Assembly (NCBI GenBank): GCA_963727445.1
Contig: CAVSGI010000009.1
Coordinates: 288,001-352,000 of the forward strand
Direction of reading: 5' to 3'
Length of the DNA: 64,000 nt
Origin: an uncultured delta proteobacterium
GTDB taxonomy: Bacteria; Myxococcota_A; Polyangia; Polyangiales; B10-G4
Part shown: piece after piece, positions 883 to 51,463 of the stretch
How positions within the stretch are numbered: position 1 is the first letter of the stretch
Layout: every line of letters starts with the position of its first letter
Notes under the pieces: model-generated
The model's database searches: none
What the model was told of the DNA's origin: nothing
The model's input: only the letters and a program-made list of their open reading frames with translations
Translations under genes and position numbers: made by a program

Positions 883-906
883 GGGGAGATCGAAACCCGG
901 TTGGCG
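883..906 (+). repeat. Solo copy of the HUH-element terminal (REP-like) motif
   Basis: GGGGAGATCGAAACCCGGTTGGCG, matching the element left end at 3859-3883 and 17279-17305. Confidence 0.85.
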
Positions 907-1362
907 CCCCATGCCGACCAGAGCAACGACGGCGCAAGTCGGCGATCTCGAGCGTTCGCGTCGCGTCGATGAGCGACAGGATCCCGTAGGGCGCGTTCCG
1001 TCGGCGCGTGTTGAGCGCCTTCTGCACACGGATGAGCTGGTGGGAGCGTAGCCCACCGCCCATCCGCCGTCACACCCGGGCCGGTCTCGCAGCGGTCGAC
1101 GCGCTCACTTCGCGCGGGGCTTCATCGCGCAGCGCGTCCAGCACCCGCGTCGCGAAGGTCCAGGTGTCGTGAGGCATGCGCGCCGTCAGGAAGGGCCCGT
1201 CTTGAACGACGAGACGAGGTGGTCCGCATGTGGGCTTCCACGCACGGCCTGCTCACGCTGCATGGACAGCCCAACGACGATGCCCGGGCCCCAGGTGAAC
1301 GCCTTCGGAGCGCCTCGATACGGACGTCGGCGCCGCTCACGCCCGCGGTGTAGCCTCGACGC

Positions 1363-2772: not shown

Positions 2773-3816
2773 GTGACGGATCGCTACGAAGCGTTCGCTT
2801 CGTCGTTGACGTCACGGCCCCTCGAAGGAAGACTTCGCGCGATGCGTCTCCGCCTCGCCGAAGTCGCTGGGCTGTCGGCCCGGCCCAATTCGCTCGCGGC
2901 GTCACCGGATGGTGAGACCATCGCTTGCACCCTCTTCGAGACGAAGAAGCTTCGCATCGGCGAGGCCGACACATTGGCGGAGCGCAAGACGATTCACCTC
3001 GGACAAGCGTTCACGCGCGGCTGCGCGTTTTCGGCGGACTCGAGTGAGGTCGTGGCGGGACAGAAGGAGCTGAAGGTCTTCTCGCTCGCGACATACAAGC
3101 CGGTCCGAAAGCTCGAGGGTCATCGGCACGACGTGACCCACGTCCAGCTCTGCGCCTCGGGGACGTTGGCGATCACCGCGAGCGGAGTCAATGTGGAGAA
3201 GGCCGACTGCTCCGTGCGAACCTGGGACTTCGCGTCGGGCAAAGAGCTGTCCCGCTGGAAGCTCCCGACCGCGGTGGACGGTCTCGCGGTGCGACCCGAC
3301 GGGTCGTTCGCGATCGGCGTGACCGCTGGCGGAGAGATCGTCGGAGGCGTGCCCGGCCAGAAGGAGCCGCTCTGGACGAGCCGGGCGCCTTCGCCCCCCA
3401 AGCGCGCGCACGGGATCCTGGTGTCGGCCGTATTGCCATCCGACCTCGAGACGGCCTGGATCGGCGGCCATCAGGGAGAGCTGTTCGAGGTCTCCGCCGC
3501 CGACGGCTCGATGATGCGTCAGGTCCGCCAGGCCGACCCCTGGTCGCATGTCGCCGCCGCGCTCGTGGATCTTCCGGAGAGTGCATGCTTCCTCGCCGGC
3601 TTTCATCTTCCAGGACACCTCCGAAAGGCCGCCATCGACCAACGGGGGGCCCGCGATGCGCACATCGCGGTGCTCGATCGCGACGGGGTCGAGGTGTGTT
3701 GGGCACCTGTCGAAGCGGGGCTCGTCGTCGCTGTCGCCGCGAGCTCGAACGGCGACGCCATCTTCGCCGCGACCGCGGAACCCGACGCGCTGCGTCGTTA
3801 CGTCGTCGAGCGGTAA
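2773..3816 (+). CDS. WD40/beta-propeller repeat protein
   Basis: LEGHRHDVTHV...DCSVRTWD, AFSADS, AVRPDGS blade motifs. Confidence 0.8.
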   Translation: MTDRYEAFASSLTSRPLEGRLRAMRLRLAEVAGLSARPNSLAASPDGETIACTLFETKKLRIGEADTLAERKTIHLGQAFTRGCAFSADSSEVVAGQKELKVFSLATYKPVRKLEGHRHDVTHVQLCASGTLAITASGVNVEKADCSVRTWDFASGKELSRWKLPTAVDGLAVRPDGSFAIGVTAGGEIVGGVPGQKEPLWTSRAPSPPKRAHGILVSAVLPSDLETAWIGGHQGELFEVSAADGSMMRQVRQADPWSHVAAALVDLPESACFLAGFHLPGHLRKAAIDQRGARDAHIAVLDRDGVEVCWAPVEAGLVVAVAASSNGDAIFAATAEPDALRRYVVER

Positions 3817-4042
3817 CGGGGCCGGGGCCGGGGGAGATCGTAACCATGTTGGGATCGCGGGGGAGATCGTAACCATGTTGGCGCCGAGCCAGGGACGCCA
3901 GCACCACTGAGGGCCGAAAGTCGCGACAAAACCGCCGGTGGCGGCCGCCGGCGGAGTGGCGGACTTTCGCCACATGATCGGCGTAAGTGGTTGAAATGAG
4001 GTCGCCGATTTGTGGCGCCGTTCTGGCAGTGGGCGCGGAGCC

Positions 4043-5041
4043 ATGTCCGCCCTCCGCAAGCCAAAAACCGCCTACGACCGCCACCTGCGCAGCCGACGAC
4101 GTCGGCGCAGCCGTCGTAAGCGCGTCCTGAAGGGCAAGATCTGGACGACGGTCCGCCGGACGACGCGACGTTACTTCCTCTTCCGGCCGGATGAAGAAGG
4201 AAAGGTAGCGGAGATCTTCTGGTACTGCCTCGCAGTCGCGGCGAAGAAGCACGGCATCGCCGTGCATGCCGCGGTGCTGATGTCGACGCACATCCACCTC
4301 GTCTACACCGACGTGCGCGGCGTGCAGCCCGACTTCAAGCGTGACTTCCACCGCACCTTCGCCCAGGGCCTGAAGGCGCTGCTCGGCTGGCCCGAGGAGG
4401 TCTTCAACAAGTACTTGGGCGGTGAGCACGAGCCGCTCACGGCCGACGCGGTCGCGGACGACATCGCCTACCTCATCGCCAATCCGGTCTCGGCCTTCGC
4501 CGTCCGCTACGCGAAGGACTGGCCCGGGGCCCAGACGCTGCCGAGGGACATCGGCCGGCGCGTCATCGAGGTGGCGCGGCCTGACGGCTACTTCGACGCC
4601 AACAATCCCGACTGGCCCGCGAAGGCGACGCTTCGCCTCGAGATGCCGGAGTGCCTCGTGACCATGTACGGAGAGGACGGAGCGCGCGCGAACCTCGCGC
4701 GTCGCGTGCGCGACTACGAGCGCGCGGCGTTCGCCGAGGCGAAGCAAGAGGGGATCGCCTTCAAGGGGGTGCGTCGGTGCATGCGGGTGGCGCGCACGGC
4801 ACGTGCGCGGAGCTGGGAGCTCTTCGGCAAGCTCAATCCTCGCTTCAAGGCCAGCGGTGACCTGGGCGCGGCGCGCGCCGCCATCGAAGAAAACGCGCAG
4901 TTCGACGAGGACTACGAAGCAGCGCTCGCGCGCTGGACCGCGGGCGACCGGCGGGTCGTCTTCCCTCACGGCACGTGGTGGATGCGCGTCCATCACGGGG
5001 TGCGGGTCGCACCCGCCCCGCGACGTCGGCTCTCTTCGTAG
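4043..5041 (+). CDS. HUH Y1 tyrosine transposase (IS200/RAYT-like) with C-terminal extension
   Basis: VLMSTHIHLV (HUH) and IAYLIANPVSA (catalytic Tyr, RAYT-type YxxxNPV); GGAG before ATG 4043; Arg-rich N-terminus. Confidence 0.88.
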   Translation: MSALRKPKTAYDRHLRSRRRRRSRRKRVLKGKIWTTVRRTTRRYFLFRPDEEGKVAEIFWYCLAVAAKKHGIAVHAAVLMSTHIHLVYTDVRGVQPDFKRDFHRTFAQGLKALLGWPEEVFNKYLGGEHEPLTADAVADDIAYLIANPVSAFAVRYAKDWPGAQTLPRDIGRRVIEVARPDGYFDANNPDWPAKATLRLEMPECLVTMYGEDGARANLARRVRDYERAAFAEAKQEGIAFKGVRRCMRVARTARARSWELFGKLNPRFKASGDLGAARAAIEENAQFDEDYEAALARWTAGDRRVVFPHGTWWMRVHHGVRVAPAPRRRLSS

Positions 5042-5214
5042 CGCCCTTCACGGCGCCCGGTCGGGCTCCCTGCGTGTCTGCGCCAAGCGCGGACGCGCAG
5101 CGGCGCGTCCGTCGGTCGCGTCCGACGCGACGCATGACGGTGACGGCGGTCGATTCCGCTCGAGGCGTGCGGTGATCCGCGACGCGCGGCGTCATCCCGG
5201 CCTCAGGTCCGACG

Positions 5215-5377
5215 CGCCATCGCTCCTTGCGCCGCTCCGCCCACCATCTGGGCTCGTCACTCCTCCGCCAACCTGGTCACGATCTCCCCCCCATCTCCCC
5301 CCGCCATCGCTCCTTGCGCCGCTCCGCCCACCATCTGGGCTCGTCACTCCTCCGCCAACCTGGTCACGATCTCCCCC
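5215..5377. repeat. Direct duplication (87-bp period) of the element right end
   Basis: CGCCATCGCTCCTTGCG...CACGATCTCCCCC at 5215-5290 and 5302-5377. Confidence 0.92.
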
Positions 5378-5449
5378 GAGGGTAGAATGCTGTCGATTCC
5401 GCGTATACCGGCCCGAGACCCCGGCCCGAGACCGAGAATGCCGATTCAA

Positions 5450-6409
5450 ATGAGCTTCCTTCAACGCACGGCGCTGCTCTCGTCGACCATCGTGATCATC
5501 AGCGCGACGCTCGGCTGTGGCTCACGCCGGGGCGTCGTCAGCGACACGGGGGTCGCTCGCGACGCCTCGATGGATGGCGCCATCGGTGACGGTACGGTGG
5601 GCGACAGCGCATCGAGCGATGGCGCGGCGGACACCACGGTGGGTGACGGGTCCCTCGACAGCGAAACGCCGGGCGACGGGGGCGCGCCCTACATCGGTGA
5701 AGAGTGCTATCCCGACGACGCCTGCTGGAGCGGGTGTGGTGAGGACGCGCCGGTGCGCGACTGCGCGGCGGCCTGTCCGGCGGCCGGTCGGCAATGCTGG
5801 GAGGGTTGTCGTCGAGAGTTCATCTCGCTCGCGGAGTGCACGACGCTCTGTGGGTTCGACGGACCGGGCTCCCAGGCAGGATGCGCCGAGCTGTGCTCGG
5901 AGTATGGCGAGACGCTGGCGAGCTGTCGGTCACTTTGTGGCGACCTCACTAGCAACTGTGGCCAGGCGGCCTGCGTCCAACTCTGCCGAAACGAGGAACT
6001 GACGGCGGCGGAATGCGTCGCGGCGTGTCCCGCCTTCGATACGCCGTTGGGTATCGGCTGGTGCTACACCGCGTGCCTCGGAAACACCCCGGCCGCGGAG
6101 TGTCGCTCACTCTGCGGCGGCGCGGGGACGACCTGCGGAGAGAGCGGGTGCTGGCAGATCTGTGACGACGCCACCCCGCCGGCCAGCTGCGCGAGCACGT
6201 GTGGAGTGACGACGGCGTGCGGGATCGGTCGCTGCTACTTGCACTGTGGAAGAGCGGGGCTCGATTTCTCGGTGTGCCGCGAGACCTGCGGGTACGTGGA
6301 GGGGACTTGCGACTGCCTCTTCAGCGGCTCGGTTCGCGAGACGTGCATGGACGCCTGCCTCGAGGCGGGCGAGACCGGCACTCTCTGCGACATGATTTGC
6401 GCGCCCTGA
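5450..6409 (+). CDS. Cys-rich lipoprotein with about 8 twin-CX3C repeats
   Basis: Signal ending TLGC, Asp/Gly/Ser linker, then repeated CxxxC-x(8-9)-CxxxC units. Confidence 0.8.
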   Translation: MSFLQRTALLSSTIVIISATLGCGSRRGVVSDTGVARDASMDGAIGDGTVGDSASSDGAADTTVGDGSLDSETPGDGGAPYIGEECYPDDACWSGCGEDAPVRDCAAACPAAGRQCWEGCRREFISLAECTTLCGFDGPGSQAGCAELCSEYGETLASCRSLCGDLTSNCGQAACVQLCRNEELTAAECVAACPAFDTPLGIGWCYTACLGNTPAAECRSLCGGAGTTCGESGCWQICDDATPPASCASTCGVTTACGIGRCYLHCGRAGLDFSVCRETCGYVEGTCDCLFSGSVRETCMDACLEAGETGTLCDMICAP

Positions 6410-6886
6410 TTCGAGGATGTGCCGTCCGCCGTCGGTAGCGTGCAGTAGATGCCCATCAGCTCTCCGGCCAGGCGGCCCATCTCTCCCTCGCGCAACCCAC
6501 ACCCGCCAACGAAGCGGCGCAGACAAGAGCATCCCAAGACCGGATCTGCATGGGGATTGGGATGTCCCAAGACCCGATCGCGTCGATGACCACGTAAGGG
6601 CAAATTGGGGGAAGCCTCCCGAGCTCTTCTCGCACGAACGCGCTCGTCGGCCCTGTCGAGGAGCGGAACACGAAATGTGGGTCACCGAGCACTTTGTAGT
6701 GAATCGTAGGCGAGGAGCCGCCGTCCATCCCGGCGTCGTTGGAGAGGCGTGGCGGGTGCATGGGGCATCGGCCGCGAACGACCGGAGCGCGACGCGAGCA
6801 GCGTCGAGGCCACGGCCGGGGTGCACCTTGCGGGAGGAGTGCCCTTTCCAGCGGCGGTTTCCAACACGCATCGAGAGAATCCCGCA

Positions 6887-7162
6887 ATGAAAAAGTACAT
6901 TACCTTTCTCGCCTCCCTTCTCATCACCTTCACCGTCCTCAGCGGCTGCGGAAAGTCCGTCTGCGAAGAGATCGTCGACAAACAGGTCGCGTGCGACACG
7001 ACAGGCCTCGCCAGCGCCTTCCGCGGTGCCGCCGTCTCGGCCTGCGAGCAGTCCGACAACAGCAACGCAGACCTCGAAGCCTGCAACGACTGCCTCGAAG
7101 GCAAGAGCTGCGAGGAGATGAGCGAATGCGACACGGTCTGCGACTTCGGTAGCGGCAGCTGA
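6887..7162 (+). CDS. Small Cys-rich lipoprotein
   Basis: MKKYITFL...VLSGC lipobox; acidic Cys-rich mature part; GC3-rich codons. Confidence 0.8.
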   Translation: MKKYITFLASLLITFTVLSGCGKSVCEEIVDKQVACDTTGLASAFRGAAVSACEQSDNSNADLEACNDCLEGKSCEEMSECDTVCDFGSGS

Positions 7163-7758
7163 GGCGAGGGCGCAGCGCCGATACTCCGCATTTCCTGCAA
7201 CGCGGGGGATGCGACGATCGACTCGGTCGTGAACGCAGCGCCCGACGGGCCCGCAGAGGACACGGGCCCGTCGAAGTGCGCATTCCGGCGCGCCTTTCGA
7301 TCGATCCGATTGCAGAAGCTCGGTCTGCGGCGTCAACGTTGGAAGCAGCTTTGGTGTCGGCCTCGTCGCTTCTGCTATGGCGACGGCCTCGCGTGAGCAC
7401 TCCGAGGACCAAGTCGGTGGCGCCAGTCCGCCTCGCGCTCGCGCTCCCCGAGCCCAACGGAGCCCGCGCTCGACCTGCGGGTCCACGCCATCGCGCGGGC
7501 GGTTCGAATCTCTGGCAGTGGCAGGGTCAGTCCTCGAATCTCGGCCCCAACGACACGCGCGTCGTCGTCGACGACCGCTTCACCCCCGACGGCGAGCTCT
7601 GCCCATGTGGGTGATGCATCGCGACGAAGAGGGCGCCGTCATCCGCGATGGCGAGGTCGAGCGGGAAGAGCCCTTCGGCGGTTCGTGACCAGCAGAGCAG
7701 CCGGCGGCTCCCGCCGAAACCACCCCCCAACCGAACGCGCCGTAGTAGGTTCTTCAGG

Positions 7759-8247
7759 ATGCGAGCCCCCAGCTTCACGCTTCTCGTCTCTGTCATCGCC
7801 GCGTCCCTCCCCCTCGGTTGCACCGCCGACACCACGCCCGGTGGCCCGCCGATGTGCACCGGCGGCGGCTGTACGACCTGCGTAGCGACCGACTGCACCT
7901 GCAGCGGCGGAGGCCGGTGCATGACGGTGTGCGAAGACGGCTGCAACCTGACCTGTTCGGGCTCCGCCGGCTGCTCCGGCGAGTGTGGTAACGACTGCAA
8001 CTTCACCTGCTCCGGCACGGACGAGTGCAACGTCGTCGTCGGTGCGCGCTCCGAGATCACGTGCTCGGGCTCTCACGGGTGCGTGGTCGAGTGCGTCGGC
8101 GGCAACTGCGTGGCTTCGTGCGGCGGGAGCGATGGGTGCGCGATCGTCTGCTCGGACGGTGGCTGCACCATCGATTCGTGCGCCGAGGGCGATGTGCAGG
8201 AGTGCGCCGACGGGACGCTCGTCTGCGCGCGCGCCTGTCCAGAGTGA
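7759..8247 (+). CDS. Cys/Gly-rich repeat lipoprotein
   Basis: PLGC lipobox; repeated CxxxCSGxxGC units. Confidence 0.8.
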   Translation: MRAPSFTLLVSVIAASLPLGCTADTTPGGPPMCTGGGCTTCVATDCTCSGGGRCMTVCEDGCNLTCSGSAGCSGECGNDCNFTCSGTDECNVVVGARSEITCSGSHGCVVECVGGNCVASCGGSDGCAIVCSDGGCTIDSCAEGDVQECADGTLVCARACPE

Positions 8248-8370
8248 GCCTCGAGCGTCCGACGCTCCCACCGGGTCATGCCGTCGATGCGATCGAACCT
8301 TCGTCGAAGAAGGGGACGAGCGGTTACCGCCTCGCCACAGGCGGTGCCTTGGAAGATGCCGAGGCGGAAA

Positions 8371-8590
8371 TCAGTCCCGCGACACGATGGTGCAGGTCTC
8401 CGTCTCGGGGTCGAAAGTGATCACCGCGGTTCCGGCGGCGAGCTCGGCCCGGACGCGCTCGCGCTTGGTTTCGATCGGGACGTCCGTGTGCCCATAGTCG
8501 GTGCCTTCCCGGAGCACGTAGTCGTCGATGACGCTGTCGAGCGCTTCGGGGCTCAGGCGCTCGGGAGGGGATCTCGAAAGGGTCGCTCAT
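8371..8590 (-). CDS. yheU: YheU (UPF0270) family protein with a +1 frameshift near 8567-8570
   Basis: Removing one base of the G4 run gives MSDPFEIPPERLSPEALDSVIDDYVLREGTDYGHTDVPIETKRERVRAELAAGTAVITFDPETETCTIVSRD; LREGTDYG is the family signature. Confidence 0.8.
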
Positions 8591-8722
8591 CGTCCCAGAT
8601 GCTCGTCGAGGAACGGAAGATTGTCGTCCGCCTGTTCTGCCACCGGGAGTTGCGTGGATTGCAGGGAGCTGCGGCCCCCGTTGCTCCGGCGGCATTCCGT
8701 GATTCGCGGCATACCGTGAGCG

Positions 8723-9772
8723 TCACCCACTCGGGTCGAAAGGCTCGGCGCCTTCGATCGCGCGTCGGATCGCCCGCAGAGGTCCCTCACATCGCGAGAG
8801 GCGAAGAAGCTCGACGGGTGAGCCGTGCTCGATCGACGAATCCTCCTCCGTGAACGGAAGGAACGGAGCGCTGAAGCCGAAAATCGTCGTGCATTCGCTC
8901 GGCCGATCCGTCGCAGACGCGGCGAGCGTCGTCGACGCCGCCGCGACGTCGCTGAGGGCGTGGCCGCGAGCACCTCGAGTCCCGTAGCGCTCTGGCTCCA
9001 ACGCGCTTCGCACCGGAGACTGAGTGTCGAACGCTTTCATGTCGATCTCGGAAAGGGTCGAATCGCACGAGCCGTCGAAGCGTGACCGGTACTCGCCATC
9101 CGCCTGCGGGAGTAGCAGGTCGTAGGAGCACGACGCGCCCGATCGCTGGACCACGCCCAGGAGGCTGGCTCGTTTCACCTCGTAGCGGTCTGGTACGCCG
9201 CTGACGACCGACTCCGGGACGTGGATGTGAAAGCGCACCTGCGCAGCTTCCTCCTCTTCCCCGGACGCCGTCACGAAGTTGGCGCCTCCGATGAACGTCC
9301 GACAGCGCACCCCATCGCGCTCCATCGGTCCCACTGAGTACATCTCGGCATGTGTAGCCCTGAGGCCGGGTGTGGAGATCTCCGCGCGCCGTCCGCAGGT
9401 GAGTGCCCCGTCGTCGCGCAGGGGCGCGAGCGTCAACGTCAGGGTCGTGGCATCCGCTTCACGCGCGGTGAACGAGACAAGAGACCGGCCCTCGCAGTCG
9501 GCGCTCGTCGCGACGGAGCGCGGGTCGAGCCTCAATCGGTGCCGCTCCGCCCATCGAGGCCGCGCGATGAGCTCGATCTCGCTCTCTCCACAAGGCGCAG
9601 CTGTGGGTGAGTCGTCTTCGAGCGGCGCGGCCGGGGGGGACGGCACGGTCTCGGACGGCACGGTCTGGGACGGCACGGTCTGGGTCGGCGTCGCTGACGC
9701 GCCATCATCGTCCCCACACGCGACGAGCAACAGAGCGAAGAAACCCCACGCGAGTGCATCGCCGCGATTCAC
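8723..9772 (-). CDS. Hypothetical lipoprotein
   Basis: GTG start, LLVAC lipobox, (Q/E)TVPS x3 linker (15-bp repeats near 9638-9682). Confidence 0.65.
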   Translation of the reverse strand: MNRGDALAWGFFALLLVACGDDDGASATPTQTVPSQTVPSETVPSPPAAPLEDDSPTAAPCGESEIELIARPRWAERHRLRLDPRSVATSADCEGRSLVSFTAREADATTLTLTLAPLRDDGALTCGRRAEISTPGLRATHAEMYSVGPMERDGVRCRTFIGGANFVTASGEEEEAAQVRFHIHVPESVVSGVPDRYEVKRASLLGVVQRSGASCSYDLLLPQADGEYRSRFDGSCDSTLSEIDMKAFDTQSPVRSALEPERYGTRGARGHALSDVAAASTTLAASATDRPSECTTIFGFSAPFLPFTEEDSSIEHGSPVELLRLSRCEGPLRAIRRAIEGAEPFDPSG

Positions 9773-10086
9773 GCCCGGAAGAATAGCAAGCGGCGAGCGG
9801 CTTGGCTCCGGGGGTCTCGGGCCGGCGAGCAGAGCGCTCTTCGGTCCGCGCGCTCCGCTCAACGAGGCGGCCGTCGTGCGTAACGAACTCCACGGCCGCG
9901 CCGTAGCCGGTGCCGTCACTCTTACGCACCTTGGCGAGATGGATGCTCGTGCCGTGAGCATCGACGGCTGTCTCGAGGAAGCGGCGCGTGCGTCGCCAGG
10001 AAGAAAGAAAAAGCCTGAACTTTCCCTCTCCGAGGCGTCCAAACTGTCGTGAAAATCCCAGCGCACCTCGTCGTCAGCCGCGACGC

Positions 10087-11514
10087 TCAGATGGCCCGGA
10101 TGGCCATCGCGAAGGTGATCTCGCGCAGGTTGTTGAGCCCCTTGTTGAGCGTGCCGTCGTTGTCCGAGTCACCGACCGCCCAGGTCTCCCAGGTCAGACC
10201 GTCGTCCCTCTGCTGGCAGGCATTGTTGTTCATCCGATCCTGTTGCTGATCGTCGAGCGCCATCAGGAACGCTTGGCCGTTGACCTCGCTGTAGCCATAG
10301 ATGCGCACCATGTGGCCGCTCGTGACCACCTCGCCATTCGGGGTCTGGGCGAGTCGGTTGAAGGCGAGGACGACGGCGTCGCCGTTCTCGAGATGGTCCC
10401 GTATCCAGGGCACGGTCACCGCGCTGCCCATCGCAGGGCTCACCGGATCCGGTTCCACGATCGAATCCGCGCAGTCATCCGGAAGGTCGTCGAGAACGCC
10501 TTGATGCTCGAGCACGACGTCCTGGTTCAAGTCGGTGTTCTCGAGGTAGGCGTAGAGCCCGTTCATCATGCCACCCTGGTTACTGACGTCGAAACAGTAG
10601 GCGATCGAGCCGCCGTTGCAGGTGTCCGTCGCCGGACGCTGCGAGAGCACATCGAGTATGCCGACGAGGCCGGGACCACCGCCGAGACCACGAATGTTCG
10701 GGTGCGGCACATCGAGGCCGAAGGTGCCTTCCAGGTAGGCGAGCGCATTGGCGTATGCGACCGGTCCACACTGGTTCTGCGCCGAGTTGACGTTCTCCTC
10801 AGCCGGCAGGCTCACCGTATACCAACTCTGGACGCCGAGCTCCGGCTCGATCGGCTCTGGGGCGAGGACCGGCGGCGCCTCCGGGGGCTCGGGGGGCAAC
10901 CCATCGGGGGGCGGCACAGTGATGCCCGACGGTTGAGTCATCTGGGTCGTCGCGACCGCGATGGGCAACAGGCGGGCGCGCTCCCACGTCCTGAGGTCCC
11001 GGCCACTGCTGAGCGGCTCGCTGGTGAAGATGACGAGCAAGTCAGTGGTGCGAAGTCGGCTCTCGGTTCCCAGGTTGAAATAGGTACGGACCGGAGGAAC
11101 GAAGGTCGGATCCGCGGCGCGCAAGCGACGAACTCGCTCCGGCCAGTCGTTGTTCGGTTGCGACTGAATCGGCAGGTTGTGCACGACCCATCCGAGCTCG
11201 TTGCGCGCGCTCAGAAAGCCCCGACTCGCGCCTGTCTGGCGCGCGACCGCGATCGGATCGACCGACAGCGCTCCCCAGGCCGACATGCCGCCCTCCTCGA
11301 CGAAGTCGATCTGCTCGACCGCAAATGCGTCGTCATCGAGGACCACCGAGGTGGACCGGGTCGAATCGTCCCGTGACCGCGAAAGGCTCCCATCGCCGCT
11401 GCGAAGAGCGCCACTCTGGAAGCCAGCCTCCCCCCCGGCGTCCGCCGCGCAGCCCCCCAGTCCAGCCGAGGCCAGCAGAATCGCGAGCACTGAATGAAGA
11501 CGATACCGATGCAT
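10087..11514 (-). CDS. Secreted lipoprotein with C-terminal papain-like (C39-like) cysteine peptidase domain
   Basis: GAGGAG RBS, LGGC lipobox, QNQCGPVAYANALAYL (Gln/Cys) and SGHMVRIYGY (His). Confidence 0.75.
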   Translation of the reverse strand: MHRYRLHSVLAILLASAGLGGCAADAGGEAGFQSGALRSGDGSLSRSRDDSTRSTSVVLDDDAFAVEQIDFVEEGGMSAWGALSVDPIAVARQTGASRGFLSARNELGWVVHNLPIQSQPNNDWPERVRRLRAADPTFVPPVRTYFNLGTESRLRTTDLLVIFTSEPLSSGRDLRTWERARLLPIAVATTQMTQPSGITVPPPDGLPPEPPEAPPVLAPEPIEPELGVQSWYTVSLPAEENVNSAQNQCGPVAYANALAYLEGTFGLDVPHPNIRGLGGGPGLVGILDVLSQRPATDTCNGGSIAYCFDVSNQGGMMNGLYAYLENTDLNQDVVLEHQGVLDDLPDDCADSIVEPDPVSPAMGSAVTVPWIRDHLENGDAVVLAFNRLAQTPNGEVVTSGHMVRIYGYSEVNGQAFLMALDDQQQDRMNNNACQQRDDGLTWETWAVGDSDNDGTLNKGLNNLREITFAMAIRAI

Positions 11515-11607
11515 TTCCGTTTCTCCTCTTGGGGGCCGACTTAGGCCAGGGGGCGGAGGGGGCCGGCCTGAGGCCCCCAGAACCTGGCCAACCCGCATGG
11601 ATGAACA

Positions 11608-11622
11608 GCAACGGGCATGCCG
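11608..11622 (-). promoter_or_regulatory. Putative sigma54 -24/-12 promoter of the cysteine peptidase gene
   Basis: Minus strand CGGCAT-GCCCG-TTGC fits TGGCAC-N5-TTGC, about 95 nt upstream of the ATG. Confidence 0.55.
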
Positions 11623-11811
11623 ACGCGTTCGCAGCGGTACTGACACCACATTGACTCGCGATTCGCGTCGATGAATGCAGCATCGGAATGGACCAGGTGG
11701 ACCACTGAACCAGCTGGTCCACGCGCCGCGAACGTCGCTGCTGAGTAAGAGCCCGGTAAAAGGGGGGAGCTCGAAGGAATCGCGACGAGGGCGCGCTTCG
11801 TACACCTGGTC

Positions 11812-12708
11812 ATGAGGCAATGGTGGGTGATCGGGGCGGTGCTGCTCGCGGCGAGCGTGGCGACACCAGTGGCGGCGCAGCGAGGAAGAGCAGGACGAGC
11901 GGGGCACGCGCCCTTCTACTTCGGCGGTCCGCTCGGGCTGCGTGACGCGACGGAGGAGCAGATCGCGGCGCTGCTTCCGCGCGCGGACTGGGTCGACGAT
12001 GTGGATCGAGTCGAGGCGTACGTCCCCGTGTCGGACGCGGGGACCGGCGTGGTCGTTCTCGAGCGGATCCGCGCGACCCAGGGCTCGGACGTGTTCCTCT
12101 GCATCGATCACGACGGCCGCCATCGCTGCGGTGCCTTCGACGTCGGTCGCGAGGGCTGGGAGCTGATCCGTATCGTCCAGCGTGTCGAGCCCCTCGACGA
12201 CGACACCTACGTCGTCGAGTCGGCGATGCGCATGGACGGCGGCAACGGGGAAGGAAGCGGCGCGTATGGGAGCGCCGAGCTCCATCTCGTCGACGTGGTA
12301 GGGGACGATCTCGCCCGCCGCGGCTGGGTGCCGATCAGCGGGATGGAGTGGATGACGATCAACGCATGCGGCTGGGACGAGCCCTGCTACGTTCGACAGG
12401 TGCGCCGCGCGCACATCCCTTGGTCGGTCACTGCGCCGGGACGCTTACGCCTCGGCGCCGTTCGCGCGGAGCGCGTCGTCGCCGACGGGCTCTTTCGCGC
12501 GTACCGGACGCCTCCCGGGCGTTCCCGCGCCCACGGGCCGAAGCGTCTGCGCGGACGCGCCGCGGCCACCGTGCTCGCCCTCGGCTTCCCCGAAGTCCGT
12601 GCGGGCGAGACGCTCCTTCCCGTCGGCCGCGATCTGCGAGGCTGCTATGACGACGAGGGCACGACCCTGACACGCGTCGGTTGCCGCCAAACGGGGAGCA
12701 GGCCCTAG
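11812..12708 (+). CDS. Hypothetical secreted protein
   Basis: Signal peptide-like N-terminus ending VAA-Q; 298 aa ORF with coding-type codon bias. Confidence 0.65.
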   Translation: MRQWWVIGAVLLAASVATPVAAQRGRAGRAGHAPFYFGGPLGLRDATEEQIAALLPRADWVDDVDRVEAYVPVSDAGTGVVVLERIRATQGSDVFLCIDHDGRHRCGAFDVGREGWELIRIVQRVEPLDDDTYVVESAMRMDGGNGEGSGAYGSAELHLVDVVGDDLARRGWVPISGMEWMTINACGWDEPCYVRQVRRAHIPWSVTAPGRLRLGAVRAERVVADGLFRAYRTPPGRSRAHGPKRLRGRAAATVLALGFPEVRAGETLLPVGRDLRGCYDDEGTTLTRVGCRQTGSRP

Positions 12709-12893
12709 CGCGGACGCAGGTCTGCCACTCCAGTGGCCCTTGCTCCAACGGGTGGCGGCCAGGCGCCTACATCCCAACTATCCTCCCGGCGTCAAGTCGA
12801 GTACTTCGACGTCTCGTCGAGGGCGTGCTGCGCGGCTCTGGCGATTCGGGATCGTCGCGGGTGGCCAGCCACTGGTCCGGGCCGGGCGGCGGC

Positions 12894-13592
12894 TCAAGGC
12901 GTGACGCGGCCGACCGCCGCGTCGCGCGCGGTGTAGAGCGCGTGAAGCGCGTCGGCGACCTTCGCCGGATCGAGCGTCGCTTGTCCGACGTCGAGCGGGG
13001 TGCCCTTGACGATGCCGAGGACGAGGAGCTCACCGACGAAGATGCCCTCCGGCTTCAGCTCGTGGTGGAGGAGGTTGGCGAGCTTGTGCTGCGCGGCTTT
13101 CGCGAGCCCCATGCCCATCGCGCCATAGCGAACGACCATCTCGTTGACCTCGTCCTCATCCAAGGCGAACCCGCCGCCGGTCACCAGGACGGCTGAAGTG
13201 CCCTTCTGCGCGCGCATGTCCTCCAGCGAGGCTTGAAGCGCGGCGACGAGACCGACGACGCCGACGTCGTAGAGCTTGCGCAGGTCCTCCATCGAGGCCG
13301 TGAGGAGATCGCCCGCCACGGGCGCGTAGGCGTTGTAGTGGATCGCGGTGATCGACCCGAGCGTCGCGCGCACATCACCGATCATCTTCTTCACGGCGTC
13401 GGGCTCGCCCAGATCGCAGGCGAAGCCCTTCGAGGCGATGCCCGCGTCGCCGAGATCGCGCGCCCCGGCGGCGACCTTCTCCGCGCTCCGCGCGACCAGC
13501 GCGACCTGGAAACCCTCGCCACCGAACTTGCGCGCCACGGCCTGGGAGATCCCGGGACCGTAGCCGCACACCACGATCGTCTTGGTCGTCAT
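12894..13592 (-). CDS. Short-chain dehydrogenase/reductase
   Basis: IVVCGYGPGIS Rossmann motif, LVARS, HYNA, LVTGGG, LAKAAQ. Confidence 0.9.
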   Translation of the reverse strand: MTTKTIVVCGYGPGISQAVARKFGGEGFQVALVARSAEKVAAGARDLGDAGIASKGFACDLGEPDAVKKMIGDVRATLGSITAIHYNAYAPVAGDLLTASMEDLRKLYDVGVVGLVAALQASLEDMRAQKGTSAVLVTGGGFALDEDEVNEMVVRYGAMGMGLAKAAQHKLANLLHHELKPEGIFVGELLVLGIVKGTPLDVGQATLDPAKVADALHALYTARDAAVGRVTP

Positions 13593-13613
13593 GATGCGGT
13601 GTTCTACCACAGC

Positions 13614-13793
13614 GCGGACGTGGCTCGCGCCCAGTGCCAGAACGGCGCCGCAAATCGCCGACCTGGTTTCAAGCGCCCTTCACGGCGCCCGGCGTCATTC
13701 CGGCCTCAGGTGCGACTCGCCATCGCTCCTTGCGCCGCGCAGCCCACCATCTGGGCTCGTCACTCCTCCGCCAACCTGGTCACGATCTCCCCC
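13614..13793. mobile_element. Rearranged non-autonomous derivative of the HUH element
   Basis: 13614-13672 resembles the reverse complement of 3991-4050; 13672-13692 matches 5040-5060; 13693-13793 matches ~5190-5290 including the terminal motif. Confidence 0.88.
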
Positions 13794-13845
13794 GCGCCCG
13801 ACTCGACGAAAGCGCGCGAAGCGCGCCATCATCGGCGGGTCGGCC

Positions 13846-14825
13846 ATGTCCAACTTCTTCGAGCTCTCGACGCGCGTCCTTTCGTGCGACCACTGCGGTG
13901 CCCCGGTGGAGGTGCCGATCGAAGGCGGCCAGGTGTCCTGTCGCTACTGCAACGCGACGGTGATCGTGACGGCGCGGCCGGTGATCCAGCCGCGCGCCGC
14001 CACGTCCGCAGACGTGAGTGTGGTGGCGGAAGGGACGCGGCTCGCGAAGCTGCGAGAGCAGAATCCCAACGCGGAGATCCCGCCGCTTCACCTCCTCCGA
14101 CTCTGCTCCGGCCTGCTGCTCGAGACGGACAAGCGCCCGCGCGCCCTCGAGCTCTTTCAGGCCGCGCGAAAGAAGCTCGCGGAGGGCGACGACGCGGAGG
14201 CGGAGCGAGACCTCTACTTCCTGGCCATCCTCTTTTCGAACTACTACCGGAAGGAAGGCGACTACCTGCGCCTCCGCGCCTTCCTCGAGTCCGCCCTCGA
14301 AGCGGCCCCCGCTCCGAGGATCTCAACGCCGACACCGACTACCGAGCGAGCCGGGCGTTTCTCGCGATCGTGCGGGGCGACTTCGCGGACGTCCTCGAGA
14401 CCCTGGGCGAGAAGTACGGCGACGTTCCGATCGCCGGTGACAGCACTGCCATGTGCTCCCTCTACCGGGCGCACGCCCTCGAGATGACGAAGGGGGCCGA
14501 CGCGGCGGCGGGTGAGCTCGTCCGGATGGCGGAGCGCTCCCAAGCCGACTGGTTCGCGACGAAGCGGGCGCGAAAGAACAACGAGAAGACCGGCCTGGTC
14601 CTGTGTCCGGAGAGCTACGCGATCGCCCACAAGAGGCTCCCGTGGTCGAAGACCAGCCCCTACGCGACCCCGCTCAGCTACGCTGCCGTCCTGGCCATGG
14701 CGCTCGGGATCATGGCCCTCCTGGGAGCGTCGACGACCGCTTTGGCCGTCGTCGGAGGCTTGGGTGGTGTCTTGGTGCTCATCATCGCGCGGAAGTGGAT
14801 CGCGATGGGACGCGACAGCGAGTAG
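13846..14825 (+). CDS. Zn-ribbon / TPR-like / C-terminal TM protein, frameshifted near 14305-14315
   Basis: CDHCGAP...CRYC zinc ribbon; coding sense continues in another frame to two hydrophobic helices and TAG at 14825. Confidence 0.6.
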
Positions 14826-14877
14826 CGCCCGGCGCGCTCAGCTCCGGCATCCCCCGCGCGGCTTCGGCCTTCACCCC

Positions 14878-14981
14878 GACGACGGTCCGCCGGACAACGC
14901 GACGGTACGTCCTCTTCCGGCCGGATAGAGAAGGAAAGGTAGCGGAGATCTTCTGGTATTGCCTCGCCGTCGCGGCGAAGA
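14878..14981 (+). pseudogene. 104-bp fragment of the HUH transposase 5' coding region
   Basis: Ungapped match to 4144-4247 with about 7 substitutions (TTVRRTTRRYVLFRPDREGKVAEIFWYCLAVAAK). Confidence 0.9.
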
Positions 14982-14999
14982 TGCTACCGAGAGAAGAGT

Positions 15000-16052
15000 A
15001 TGAGGAATTCACGACGACGCTGGCCGGCGACCGCGCACCTCGCTGTGCGTGTCGCACTCGCATCGGCGGTGTCGATGCCCGTGACCGCCTGGGCATGTGC
15101 CCTCGTGGCCCTGCCGAACGAAGCCGTGCAGGTCGATGGGGAAGAGGTGCTGATTCTCTGGGACGCCGACAGCGGCAAGGAGCATCTGATTCGGCACATC
15201 GGCTTTCGTGGAGACGCGACGCACTTCGGGTTCCTCGTGCCGACGCCGGGGGAGCCGGAGGTGGCCGAGGTGGAGGGCGACCCCTTCGGCGTGCTCTTCG
15301 ATCTCTACTACCGCCCTCCACCGCCGCCGCCACTGTCGCGGACGCGTTCGCGTCAGAGCTCGATGGAGCTCGCATCGCCGTGGGACTCCAACGTCGAGGT
15401 CGTGGCCGAGCATCACGTGGCGGGGCAGACGGCGACCGTGCTCCGCGCGGCAGACGCGAGCGCCCTCGACGACTGGCTCGCCGAAAACGGCTACCCGTCG
15501 GGGCCAGCGCTCGAAGCGTACGTCCGGCCCTACGTCGCCCGTGGATGGATGATCACCGCCTTCAAGTACGACAAAGAACAGCCCCAGGTCGACAGCCCGA
15601 CCATCAGCCTGAGCTTCGACACCGACACCCCGTTCTTTCCCTACGCTGAACCTATCGGGCACCGCCCGGCGCGCCCCTTCCGCCTCAGCGTCGTCGCGCC
15701 CACACCGATGCGCGCACACCTCTCGCGCGCATCTGCTCGCGGCGCGCGGTGGCGCGCCCGCATCGGCTATCGCAACGAGCTCATCGAGCAGCAACGCGTA
15801 CGCCTCCTCGACGAGGCGGGGGTCACCCTGCCGGAAGGCACACTGCATCTGACCACCTGGGACGAGCCACGGAGCCGCCGCGGTCGGCGTGACCTCTACT
15901 TCGCGGTGCAGCGTAGGGCGCACCCGATCCGCGGCAGGATCCGGACGCGCATCGTTGCGCCGCGGCCGCGGGCACGCGCGCCCGTCGGGGAGCCCTTCCG
16001 GCAACCTTTCCGAGGGGTGCGGTCGCATCGACGCAGCGGGGGAGAGTCGTAG
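15000..16052 (+). CDS. DUF2330-like secreted protein
   Basis: AWAC signal end, EEVLILWD...EHLIR, FGFLVPTP, LDDWLAENGY, PYVARGW. Confidence 0.75.
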   Translation: MRNSRRRWPATAHLAVRVALASAVSMPVTAWACALVALPNEAVQVDGEEVLILWDADSGKEHLIRHIGFRGDATHFGFLVPTPGEPEVAEVEGDPFGVLFDLYYRPPPPPPLSRTRSRQSSMELASPWDSNVEVVAEHHVAGQTATVLRAADASALDDWLAENGYPSGPALEAYVRPYVARGWMITAFKYDKEQPQVDSPTISLSFDTDTPFFPYAEPIGHRPARPFRLSVVAPTPMRAHLSRASARGARWRARIGYRNELIEQQRVRLLDEAGVTLPEGTLHLTTWDEPRSRRGRRDLYFAVQRRAHPIRGRIRTRIVAPRPRARAPVGEPFRQPFRGVRSHRRSGGES

Positions 16053-16195
16053 GCGACGTGGATGGCGCGATCGACCGCCCCCAGCAGCGCAGTGCTAGCG
16101 CGTGCAGCAAGGCGCGGGTGGAACAAGAACATCTTGGCGATCCGAACGGTTGGGGGACGAGCTCCGTCCCCCTGTGGCGGCCGAACGAACCAGGC

Positions 16196-17227
16196 TCAGA
16201 GGCCGTCGGGCGTACAGGTGAGCACCATTCGCCCGTCGACCGGGTTCGTGGTCTCCATCGGATAGGTGTTCGGCACGAGGTCGCAGCTGGGGTCGGTGTC
16301 GTCGACCCGACGAAGGCAGAGGCCGTCGCTGGTGCCGGAGCTCGTCGCCGCGCAGAAGGTGCCCGGCCGGCCAGCCCGGTCGGGGCAATATTGGGTGCAC
16401 GGCTCGGTGCAGAAGAAGCTGGGGTGACAGAAGGCGTCGCTCTCGGGCGTTCCGTCGCCGCAGTCCTCGTCGACCGCGCACGAGTCGCCGATGAAGCCGC
16501 GGGGCACGACGCGCGGCGGCCGCGGGCCGATGGAGTCGCCGAAGACGATCTCGGCATCGGGAGCGTAGAGGGCCGCTTCGACACCCACGTCGACCTCGTC
16601 ACCATTCGCGTCGAGCTCCACTTCCTGCTGAATCGACACCGGGGTCGAGGCGAAATCCTTGACCGCGTAGAAGAGCTCGACGATGTCGGGCTTCTCCATG
16701 CGCATGCAGCCGTGAGAGACGTAGCCGCGCCGGAGCGGATGGGTGATCGGGCCGTGAAGGCCGTAGGTGTTGGCACCGGCCGCATTGCGAATGTTCAGAC
16801 GCAGGAAGGGCAGGCCCTCGAAATACGACGGCTCCCAGCGAGCCGGCACGTAGTACCAGCCATCGTTCGTATCCGGACTCGTCAGGTAGTGGCCGGTAGG
16901 CGTGATGCTGTAGCCGCTCGATCCGAGCTTGCCGACGCCGGTGGGATAGACGCGGCTGAAGCCCGTCTGTCGATCGAAGAGGTGGACCGTCTGCTTGCTG
17001 AGCGAGACGATGATCTCGGGCGCGACGAGGCCGGCGGGAGGCGGGATCTCGTAGGGAAGAGGTCGATCCTCTTTGTCCTCGAGGGAGTAGCGTTCCTGGT
17101 CCCCCTGAACACCCTCGTCGTAGCCATCGGGCGGCCCGTCGAGCTGCTCCGCGGCACAGCCCACGAGCGGCGCGAGCAAGAAAAGCGAGTACGAGATACG
17201 CAAAGCACCGAGACGACCACCCATCAT
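16196..17227 (-). CDS. L,D-transpeptidase (YkuD) family lipoprotein with Cys-rich C-terminus
   Basis: YPTGVG, TPTG, YGLHG...VSHGCMRM catalytic motif; LVGC lipobox. Confidence 0.9.
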   Translation of the reverse strand: MMGGRLGALRISYSLFLLAPLVGCAAEQLDGPPDGYDEGVQGDQERYSLEDKEDRPLPYEIPPPAGLVAPEIIVSLSKQTVHLFDRQTGFSRVYPTGVGKLGSSGYSITPTGHYLTSPDTNDGWYYVPARWEPSYFEGLPFLRLNIRNAAGANTYGLHGPITHPLRRGYVSHGCMRMEKPDIVELFYAVKDFASTPVSIQQEVELDANGDEVDVGVEAALYAPDAEIVFGDSIGPRPPRVVPRGFIGDSCAVDEDCGDGTPESDAFCHPSFFCTEPCTQYCPDRAGRPGTFCAATSSGTSDGLCLRRVDDTDPSCDLVPNTYPMETTNPVDGRMVLTCTPDGL

Positions 17228-17278
17228 GGGTTCCTTTATAGCAAGAGCCCCAATCCAGGCGAATTCGGATGGGGCGCC

Positions 17279-18742
17279 GGGGAGATGATCGTAACCCGGT
17301 TGGCGCCGAGCCAGGGACGCCAGCACCACTGAGGGCCGAAAGTCGCGACAAAACCGCCGGTGGCGGCCGCCGGCGGAGTGGCGGACTTTCGCCACATGAT
17401 CGGCGTAAGTGGTTGAAATGAGGTCGCCGATTTGTGGCGCCGTTCTGGCAGTGGGCGCGGAGCCATGTCCGCCCTCCGCAAGCCAAAAACCGCCTACGAC
17501 CGCCACCTGCGCAGCCGACGACGTCGGCGCAGCCGTCGTAAGCGCGTCCTGAAGGGCAAGATCTGGACGACGGTCCGCCGGACGACGCGACGTTACTTCC
17601 TCTTCCGGCCGGATGAAGAAGGAAAGGTAGCGGAGATCTTCTGGTACTGCCTCGCAGTCGCGGCGAAGAAGCACGGCATCGCCGTGCATGCCGCGGTGCT
17701 GATGTCGACGCACATCCACCTCGTCTACACCGACGTGCGCGGCGTGCAGCCCGACTTCAAGCGTGACTTCCACCGCACCTTCGCCCAGGGCCTGAAGGCG
17801 CTGCTCGGCTGGCCCGAGGAGGTCTTCAACAAGTACTTGGGCGGTGAGCACGAGCCGCTCACGGCCGACGCGGTCGCGGACGACATCGCCTACCTCATCG
17901 CCAATCCGGTCTCGGCCTTCGCCGTCCGCTACGCGAAGGACTGGCCCGGGGCCCAGACGCTGCCGAGGGACATCGGCCGGCGCGTCATCGAGGTGGCGCG
18001 GCCTGACGGCTACTTCGACGCCAACAATCCCGACTGGCCCGCGAAGGCGACGCTTCGCCTCGAGATGCCGGAGTGCCTCGTGACCATGTACGGAGAGGAC
18101 GGAGCGCGCGCGAACCTCGCGCGTCGCGTGCGCGACTACGAGCGCGCGGCGTTCGCCGAGGCGAAGCAAGAGGGGATCGCCTTCAAGGGGGTGCGTCGGT
18201 GCATGCGGGTGGCGCGCACGGCACGTGCGCGGAGCTGGGAGCTCTTCGGCAAGCTCAATCCTCGCTTCAAGGCCAGCGGTGACCTGGGCGCGGCGCGCGC
18301 CGCCATCGAAGAAAACGCGCAGTTCGACGAGGACTACGAAGCAGCGCTCGCGCGCTGGACCGCGGGCGACCGGCGGGTCGTCTTCCCTCACGGCACGTGG
18401 TGGATGCGCGTCCATCACGGGGTGCGGGTCGCACCCGCCCCGCGACGTCGCCTCTCTTCGTAGCGCCCTTCACGGCGCCCGGTCGGGCTCCCTGCGTGTC
18501 TGCGCCGAGCGCGGACACGCAGCGGCGCGTCCGTCGGTCGCGTCCGACGCGACGCATGACGGTGACGGCGGTCGATTCCGCTCGAGGCGTGCGGTGATCC
18601 GCGACGCGCGGCGTCATTCCGGCCTCAGATCCGACGCGCCATCGCTCCTTGCGCCGCTCCGCCCACCATCTGGGCTCATCACTCCTCCGCCAACCTGGTC
18701 ACGATCTCCCCCCGCCTCCGCCAACCTGGTCACGATCTCCCC
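17279..18742 (+). mobile_element. HUH/Y1 (RAYT-like) transposase element, copy 2
   Basis: Left motif variant GGGGAGATGATCGTAACCCGGTTGGCG; right motif twice (18688-18713, 18719-18742) plus partial CACGATCTC at 18751. Confidence 0.9.
17465..18463 (+). CDS. HUH Y1 tyrosine transposase, protein identical to copy 1
   Basis: Translations of 4010..5041 and 17432..18463 are the same in the ORF track. Confidence 0.88.
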   Translation: MSALRKPKTAYDRHLRSRRRRRSRRKRVLKGKIWTTVRRTTRRYFLFRPDEEGKVAEIFWYCLAVAAKKHGIAVHAAVLMSTHIHLVYTDVRGVQPDFKRDFHRTFAQGLKALLGWPEEVFNKYLGGEHEPLTADAVADDIAYLIANPVSAFAVRYAKDWPGAQTLPRDIGRRVIEVARPDGYFDANNPDWPAKATLRLEMPECLVTMYGEDGARANLARRVRDYERAAFAEAKQEGIAFKGVRRCMRVARTARARSWELFGKLNPRFKASGDLGAARAAIEENAQFDEDYEAALARWTAGDRRVVFPHGTWWMRVHHGVRVAPAPRRRLSS

Positions 18743-18766
18743 TCCGCCCGCACGATCTCGCGCCGT

Positions 18767-50881: not shown

Positions 50882-51047
50882 GGGCGAAGAGTACACCAGG
50901 GCAGCGCGGGGGTGTCATCCCGTCTTGATGCCAGGGACGGCGTTCGGTCTCTCGGTCTTGCGAAGTCGGAGGTGCTGCATACGAGAGCAATGCGCGAGGG
51001 CGGGGCGGGGACCGGGCATGCTGGGGACGGCGCATGAGCTCCTCGTT

Positions 51048-51463
51048 CACGCGGACCGAGGTTCGACTCATCGCCCGTTGCCTGCGAGAGCGGTCCGCCC
51101 ACGCGGACCGAGGTTCGACTCATCGCCCGTTGCCTGCGAGAGCGGTCCGCCCACGCGGACCGAGGTCCGACTCATCGCCCGTTGCCTGCGAGAGCGGTCC
51201 GCCCGCGCGGACCGAGGTTCGACTCATCGCCCGTTGCCTGCGAGAGCGGTCCGCCCACGCGGACCGAGGTTCGACTCATCGCCCGTTGCCTGCGAGAGCG
51301 GTCCGCCCAAGCGGACCGAGGTCCGACTCATCGCCCGTTGCCTGCGAGAGCGGTCCGCCCGCGCGGACCGAGGTTCGACTCATCGCCCGTTGCCTGCGAG
51401 AGCGGTCCGCCCACGCGGACCGAGGTTCGACTCATCGCCCGTTGCCTGCGAGAGCGGTCCGCC
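51048..51463. repeat. Tandem array of 8 x 52-bp hairpin-forming units (no spacers)
   Basis: Unit CACGCGGACCGAGGTTCGACTCATCGCCCGTTGCCTGCGAGAGCGGTCCGCC starting at 51048, 51100, 51152, 51204, 51256, 51308, 51360, 51412. Confidence 0.97.

Follow-up and report, generated by a model that had tools for sequence, protein, structure and literature searches.

Can a transposase gene of the RAYT type (a tyrosine transposase associated with REPs, which are repetitive extragenic palindromes) move together with its own ends, and where would its enzyme cut? The question is raised by a window of 64,000 nucleotides (the whole stretch of DNA analysed here, G000:C9:288001-352000) from an uncultured delta proteobacterium (assembly GCA_963727445.1, designated G000; 9.47 Mb, 69% GC). 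The window contains two copies of a 1.43-kb element in which one predicted HUH-Y1 (RAYT-type) transposase gene lies between short inverted ends. We propose, with a probability of roughly 0.6, that the enzyme nicks these ends and moves the whole unit.

The two copies lie 13,422 nt apart on the same strand, are 99.2% identical over 1,439 nt and encode identical proteins of 332 amino acids (aa), in agreement with an initial annotation made from the sequence alone. Their flanks are unrelated, and identity stops at the end motifs on both sides. The ungapped cores differ by 8 substitutions (2 in the left motif, 1 synonymous and 5 in the 3' non-coding part), and about 1,150 consecutive bases inside them are identical. 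The same pattern was found in two further pairs, each within the same genome: the C13a/C10 pair is 94.6% identical from terminus to terminus (98.9% in the open reading frame) and the C13b/C20a pair 88%, both without any flank match. Of 20 elements fetched from genus g9, 16 possessed both ends, with cores of 1,318-1,338 nt; 13 of these 16 share no flank with another element and 3 share one site. These comparisons argue that the element is very probably mobile as a unit. The initial annotation had described an actively mobile unit with its own ends; movement of the unit is upheld, while activity is seen only as recent-to-old movement, with one site kept through speciation.

That site was surveyed in relatives (30 loci fetched; 47 of 55 genomes matched). 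It was filled at 5 of the 30 loci and empty at 17, where the neighbouring genes are 20-84 nt apart; 2 loci had 580-630 nt and no element, and at 6 no second flank was called. The filled hosts are five related species that form one clade on a 425-nt marker. Their elements fall in two lineages, and a one-clade origin of the five resident elements was rejected (p-AU 4e-6 on a quick tree). Replacement or two insertions, together with long persistence, may explain two element lineages at one site. In genome G009 a gene that runs uninterrupted at 12 of 13 loci of relatives is broken by the right end, 1 nt from the predicted terminus; the remainder of that gene was not found in G009 (estimated completeness 100%, about 20 contigs). 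In G090 the right flank also begins at the predicted terminus. Exact boundaries with flanks that often do not rejoin fit deletion at or after insertion, and prove no route.

The imperfect inverted end motif held up when the genome was searched: there were 13 exact and 31 three-mismatch matches versus none in the reversed genome, mostly at element ends. A first inverted-repeat scan was noisy, and a motif search was used instead for a survey of 157 loci (70 from genomes, 80 of 452 from metagenomes and 7 own). Among those with more than 42% identity and enough flank, an inward-oriented motif was present upstream in 101 of 121 loci and downstream in 97 of 111, at median distances of 186 and 235 nt from the fixed residues. 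The family end consensus is RRA-GATCCGACCGAGGTTGGC (RRA-GATC-N7-GGTTGG), and conservation fades within a few bases outside the GATC. As a correction to the initial annotation, the true element end is 3 nt ahead of GATC. The G-run varies; the window ends fit GGGGWSAS, a motif present in some TIRtron repeats only, at 7 of 8 positions, and the family consensus is without the G-run. No target-site duplication was visible in the window, as noted before, or among 47 complete elements of the family (the best repeat averaged 1.96 nt, versus 1.81 nt for mismatched flank pairs), and there was no shared target base at the ends beyond a fading purine bias. A hairpin reading of the ends was rejected, with a mean dG like that of shuffled sequences (-1.81 versus -1.88) and pairs kept in 56-96% of 162 ends. 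Because the motif folds no better than shuffles, we treated it as a sequence-recognised terminal inverted repeat. The palindromic core and the REP-like character that had been ascribed to the ends were abandoned: the ends have no hairpin signal and no GTAG foot, and the genome holds 37 copies of the motif.

The ends carry a second feature on which the initial annotation was silent. Reading inward, the order is flank, short end copy, further end copy and intact end. Such nested, variably truncated copies of the element's own terminus were found at 123 of 183 ends, versus 22 of 175 in DNA 200-400 nt further out and 4.9% of shuffles. Units are mostly 8-42 nt long, with a maximum of 126. For the analysis of restart points 162 well-placed ends were used (21 were dropped for a non-GATC or misplaced core), and 81 of these had a unit of at least 8 nt. 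The three bases before GATC vary by element (AAA, GAA, GGA, AGA). Over 159 units, identity to the own end was 0.98, 0.92 and 0.88 at positions -1, -2 and -3 and 0.50 at -4; identity to other ends was 0.93, 0.40, 0.36 and 0.27 at positions -1 to -4. Since these tag bases differ between elements, the restart point of every unit is position -3 of the end to which it belongs. Outer full motifs were equal to their own innermost 18-mer in 77 of 132 cases and to those of others in 1.7%, and the left and right units of copy 1 bear the private variants of copy 1. Among 52 linkers of 8-40 nt between units, 18 carry on the element sequence beyond a mismatch, 5 agree with the direct flank (control 2.3%) and none agrees with the inverted flank. 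At the right end of one locus (L173, G047:C7) GATC is changed to CATC in all stacked units, so re-iterations can form after insertion. The left re-iteration of L173 is 192 nt long and extends past the start codon. The stacked partial copies, read as sequence records, are likely to mark the position at which the enzyme nicks.

Stacked ends are not private to this lineage. Y1 genes between terminal inverted repeats have been named TIRtrons or TIRYTs in the available text of Di Nocera 2013 (PMC3733652), so the element belongs to a class already described and not, as first suggested, to a poorly described one between IS200 and RAYT/REPIN systems. Classical TIRYTs with a helix-turn-helix (HTH) are present in the same genome, where their ends form families of miniature inverted-repeat transposable elements (MITEs) with 154 and 55 motif copies; same-orientation repeats occur in 35 of 54 and 10 of 22 end clusters. 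The first of these TIRYTs (L083, G000:C9:565690-568929) has a 19-nt end with 154 copies in 54 clusters, 34 of them with both orientations and mostly MITEs of about 95 nt, and its truncated ends are stacked as in the main family. Its end copies, outer and inner, are preceded by a biased 5-mer (CTAAC/TTGAT-like). The second (L084, G000:C10:486168-489401; Y1_Tnp plus HTH) has 55 copies of its end, grouped in 22 clusters, and shows no bias upstream of them.

We hypothesized that the re-iterations arise by nicking, extension and rejoining. The enzyme would cut one strand, the inward one, 3 nt before the GATC of each end. From HUH chemistry, the downstream piece would then carry a 5'-phosphotyrosine and the host flank a free 3'-OH. 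A host polymerase would extend this 3'-OH over a variable stretch of the element, in many cases adding a few bases more, and the 3'-OH so formed would attack the phosphotyrosine and rejoin the 5' end held by the enzyme. With every abortive round the intact end would gain one truncated end copy on its outer side. Nicking of the inward strand at -3 followed by extension and rejoining accounts for the fixed start, the variable length, the self-origin and the opposite strands at the two ends, and we consider this origin of the re-iterations quite probable from the sequence patterns. A DDE enzyme frees a 3'-OH on the element and would copy the flank, not the element end. The polarity of the re-iterations thus fits HUH chemistry and not DDE chemistry. 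HUH enzymes form a 5'-phosphotyrosine and leave a free 3'-OH able to prime synthesis or attack the adduct, according to the available text of PMC8266576, and the same three steps have been proposed for the amplification of bacterial interspersed mosaic elements (BIMEs; PMC3333891, legend of Fig. 7B). Compared with the BIME scheme, the site here appears fixed and can be mapped.

Less support exists for the steps of complete transposition. In productive rounds, synthesis that starts at the nicked ends would traverse the element, and the 5' ends of the element would be attached to 3'-OH ends elsewhere (nicks, gaps or breaks). Joining of 5' ends to an available 3'-OH would account for the lack of target-site duplications, for intergenic survival and for loss or exchange of DNA beside an end. 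To transposition in which copying starts from the flanks and the held 5' ends are linked to host 3'-OH we give slightly less than an even chance.

Several observations weigh against the proposal that the enzyme nicks its ends and moves the unit. The wrong-strand control for the end motif was high (43 of 121 and 19 of 111), because the motif is partly self-complementary. Joints without extra bases made up only 35 of 211 units, and the short linkers are poor in T (7% versus 17%) and of unexplained origin; read as very short end copies they scored 0.28 versus 0.24 for shuffles, and this reading was dropped. At -4 and -5 identity remains near 0.5, and the position of the nick may therefore vary. 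As the five filled hosts form one clade, their site shows persistence as much as movement, and the empty sites, which belong to other species with 76-80% flank identity, do not allow insertion to be read to the exact base. For the window copies themselves no empty site was found in 40 relatives, a comparison the initial annotation had called for, and a third query returned only 2 distant relatives and no junction. In G090 the DNA that lies upstream in the closest relative has been displaced to another contig, where no element end adjoins it, an arrangement at odds with a simple cointegrate. Among 271 loci none showed a clean right-left junction or a cointegrate. The 8 substitutions that separate the window copies are concentrated towards their ends, a distribution that conversion or consensus polishing could produce.

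The main rival for movement of the whole unit is an excised single-stranded circle, formed as in IS200- or REPIN-like peel-and-paste by two cuts on the same strand while the inverted ends pair into a stem; in that case re-iterations would be a side reaction at resident ends. The closest folds to the protein, TnpA-REP and the IS200 enzymes, act on single-stranded DNA, TnpA-REP is described in the available text of PMC8266576 as cutting both sides of a bound REP, and a MITE of about 92 nt built from both ends of the C13b/C20a subfamily exists (G000:C5:175033-175128). The mutated GATC common to all units at one end also shows that re-iterations can postdate insertion. We nevertheless consider a circle rather unlikely. 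Circular junctions, a further check suggested by the initial annotation, were absent from the 271 loci, where the 38 candidate lines proved by eye to be self-complementary GATC artefacts or chance; the ends lack a hairpin signal, no target base is shared beyond the purine bias, and flanking DNA is lost beside an end.

Improbable, in our view, is a sedentary gene that only edits or spreads its ends, with extra gene copies arising by host duplication, end-motif recombination or horizontal uptake. It would accord with the view of class-2 genes as non-moving in the available text of two studies (10.1101/279083; 10.1101/2021.07.10.451892), with one site kept across five species, and with the 75 synonymous versus 32 non-synonymous codon changes between two in-genome copies; the family also had no match on plasmids and no locus on viral contigs. 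A sedentary gene does not readily explain why identity ends at the termini in three independent pairs, why one genome has 7 close copies and others up to 15 matches, why solo ends are few, why a gene is cut at the terminus in G009 and why one site holds two lineages. Replication slippage or unequal recombination independent of the enzyme is a very unlikely source of the re-iterations: G- or A-runs precede many ends and one window end has a plain 3-nt duplication, but the units have a fixed start, a variable stop and extra bases at most joints, are confined to ends, and recur in this pattern in another Y1 family of the genome, whose ends are unrelated. An assembly duplication of the second copy, which the long identical run and the failure of any contig of an independent run to span either copy might suggest, is contradicted by the 8 substitutions, by different re-iterations at all four ends, by other pairs on separate contigs and by neighbouring remnants that recur in independent samples, and is scarcely credible.

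Support for nicking by an HUH enzyme also came from the protein. Besides one fragment, tblastn detected 12 homologs of gene size in the genome; apart from the two copies, three of them have 80-90% identity, two 40% and five about 30%. Among 8,000 candidates 243 homologs were found, mostly of about 305 aa and, where named, from Myxococcota or Deltaproteobacteria. In the 50 homologs compared, out of 120 listed, H83, H85, Y143 and N147 were invariant, and these residues align with E. coli RayT; YLIANP provides the Y-x3-NP motif, with an HUH-Y spacing of 58. Some in-genome paralogs carry Y-x3-NA or Y-x3-NG. The AlphaFold model (pLDDT 87.6) had its best match in the Protein Data Bank (PDB) to 4ER8, E. 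coli TnpA-REP (Foldseek E 3.5e-4; Z 12.3, root-mean-square deviation 3.5, 158 aligned), followed by IS200 enzymes. The enzyme is thus predicted, from its model and fixed residues, to be a class-2 (RAYT-type) HUH-Y1 protein, as the initial annotation had placed it. The extra C-terminal domain (FPHGTWW) singled out there is conserved across the family, with Y291, W298, F307, P308, G310, W312, M314 and H318 invariant in the same 50 homologs; residues 211-318 form long helices with no confident structural match in the whole-protein model. The Arg-rich N-terminus is not a class feature, being restricted to a subfamily, since most relatives align only from residue 23-31. The Y1_Tnp profile recommended as a check matched neither the window protein nor any of the 50 members, and none of the 50 had a C-terminal HTH (Bac_DnaA_C, HTH_23, HTH_28), with L084 as positive control for Y1_Tnp and HTH. 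The match to REP_Tyr_transpos (NF047646) was weak (23.6 bits versus a cut-off of 80), and a PDB sequence search with the window protein gave none. Atlas neighbours (score 0.95-0.96) carry Y1_Tnp on 17-58% of their members, so a missing Pfam match does not mean absence of kinship.

Like TIRtrons/TIRYTs, the family has a class-2 HUH-Y1 gene enclosed by terminal inverted repeats that bear no relation to GTAG REPs, has MITE-like derivatives and, in this genome, has stacked ends in common with them. It differs from them in having no C-terminal HTH or Y1_Tnp match and an end consensus of its own, and in the window family gene copies multiply while MITEs are rare. TIRYTs belong mostly to TnpA-Y1 subclass 2.1, equivalent to RAYT Group 1, which is characterised by Y-x3-NP, an HUH-Y spacing of about 58-67 and, in all 20 TIRYTs, a C-terminal HTH (Quentin 2018, 10.1101/279083, available text); the motif and spacing of the window protein fit, the absence of an HTH from the family does not. 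Group 1 is given the highest duplication rate among RAYTs, 6.2%, in the available text of Bertels 2017 (PMC5581495), and is called unable to duplicate in that of a 2022 preprint (10.1101/2021.07.10.451892). Neither unit movement nor a nick site is reported for TIRtrons in the available text of PMC3733652 and 10.1101/279083. Subclass 2.3 has an HUH-Y spacing of about 110 from an inserted domain, against 58 here, and class 3 has Y-x3-Q and CnGA-footed hairpins, against an invariant N147 and no hairpin signal.

REPtrons (E. coli RayT/TnpA-REP, groups 2/3) share the 4ER8 fold, HUH plus Y-x3-NP and, in the available text of PMC3333891 and PMC8266576, a proposed nick-extend-rejoin amplification of BIMEs. 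They have a single gene and hundreds of GTAG-footed hairpins, whereas the family is multicopy with 37 end motifs and no such hairpins; they cut CT sites at variable distance, whereas the family apparently has a fixed nick at -3; and the family protein is twice the length of the REPtron enzyme. IS200/IS605 elements (IS608, ISDra2) have the HUH-Y1 core fold, no target-site duplication and mobility of their own. As first annotated, the element is not one of them: their enzymes are of about 150 aa with Y-x3-Q, their subterminal hairpins differ from each other and their target is a fixed tetra- or pentanucleotide, whereas the family has 332 aa, Y-x3-NP, symmetric inverted ends without a hairpin signal, no fixed target and no tnpB in the unit. 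The rolling-circle elements IS91/ISCR combine an HUH enzyme, 3'-OH-primed copying, no target-site duplication and effects on flanking DNA with ori and ter ends. The family lacks their Y-x3-Y motif among the residues invariant in 50 homologs and has two equivalent inverted ends.

The family profile was present in 65 of 151 genomes of the order (a tally that takes in G122, an unpublished genome used for none of the other claims) and in 23 of 121 genomes of the phylum, often in several copies. Members scored 167-565 bits, and classical TIRYTs, four PF01797-positive proteins of the genome and RayT at most 14 bits. In a core tree of 25 rows, 20 family rows stood apart from L083/L084 with weak support (87/74). 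A literature search, which left full text of subscription journals, figures and ISfinder outside, gave only PMC3733652 and 10.1101/279083 for TIRtrons/TIRYTs and found nothing on this lineage or on stacked ends, and we provisionally regard the lineage as undescribed; as far as our searches reach, unit mobility and a nick predicted at base level are new. The available text of the literature cited treats class-2 genes as unable to copy themselves and gives no mechanism for TIRtrons. Through comparison of loci, the family adds evidence for movement of a class-2 gene together with its ends, and its re-iterations predict the strand, base and polarity of cleavage. A wider and speculative idea, to which we assign a low likelihood, is that HUH-Y1 elements bounded by terminal inverted repeats are autonomous transposons of reversed polarity, in which tyrosine holds both 5' ends for joining to host 3'-OH and copying is primed by the donor flanks, unlike DDE transposition, IS200 peel-and-paste and the one-ended rolling circle of IS91, and that this lineage and classical TIRtrons represent a still-mobile state ancestral to the sedentary RAYT/REPIN systems, with stacked ends recording the nick. 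As a tool, a compact enzyme able to join a defined 5' end to whatever 3'-OH ends are available would also be attractive.

Further element pieces in the window, likewise absent from the initial annotation, are listed with both copies in Table 1.

Table 1. Element copies, ends and related pieces in the window (window coordinates).
Feature	Position	Strand	Remarks
Solo left end motif	883..908	+	
Copy 1 left re-iteration	3833..3861	+	29 nt; bears copy 1's own motif variant
Copy 1 core, left terminus to innermost right terminus	3862..5287	+	1,426 bp; terminus at -3 from GATC
Copy 1 left end motif (3-nt tag, GATC, N7, GTTGG)	3862..3883	+	putative nick just 5' of 3862
Predicted HUH-Y1 transposase gene, copy 1	4043..5041	+	332 aa; H83, H85, Y143, N147; C-terminal domain with FPxGxWxM
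Copy 1 innermost right end motif	5266..5287	-	
Copy 1 right re-iterations	5288..5374	-	87 nt: one long unit and a 6-nt unit, copied from copy 1's own end
Rearranged remnant	13611..13794	.	inverted 5'-region piece (87%), 3'-region start, right end (94%); junctions also in independent contigs
Transposase gene fragment	14878..14984	+	92.5%
Copy 2 left end motif	17281..17305	+	3-nt duplication ahead of GATC
Copy 2 core	17284..18709	+	1,426 bp
Second transposase gene, identical protein	17465..18463	+	
Copy 2 right re-iterations	18710..18760	-	31 nt and a degenerate 20-nt unit

The distant (about 30%) subfamily in the genome comprises G000:C20:110410, C12:51868, C9:1401, C11:174290 and C17:171594. 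Its C20 and C12 copies are 97.7% identical over 1,323 nt; those on C9 and C11 are truncated and adjoin an ATPase-like gene. Two short PF01797-positive Y1 proteins (L081, L082) end in a PPGTW-like motif resembling the FPxGTWW of the family. In another genome a head-to-tail dimer of the family element was found (L271, G002:C34:301800-305400; 91% identical), the second copy of which has no left end. An unrelated 104-nt repeat (L171:4780-4883) recurs in many genus g9 genomes.

The sequencing runs searched gave only short contigs with small shares. One contig, 98% identical, starts just inside the left motif after 178 other bases, and another departs from the reference 3 nt past the stop of the upstream gene; both are single, low-depth contigs and were not used as evidence. 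Rfam gave no matches in window positions 3700-5500. The start of the WD40-like gene preceding copy 1 is duplicated with 93% identity (630-726 and 2777-2873), the duplicate lying 157 nt upstream of the solo left end, possibly as an element-linked local rearrangement. At 51044-51463 there are about 8 tandem copies of a 52-bp unit, which has 10 nt (GACCGAGGTT) in common with the family end consensus.

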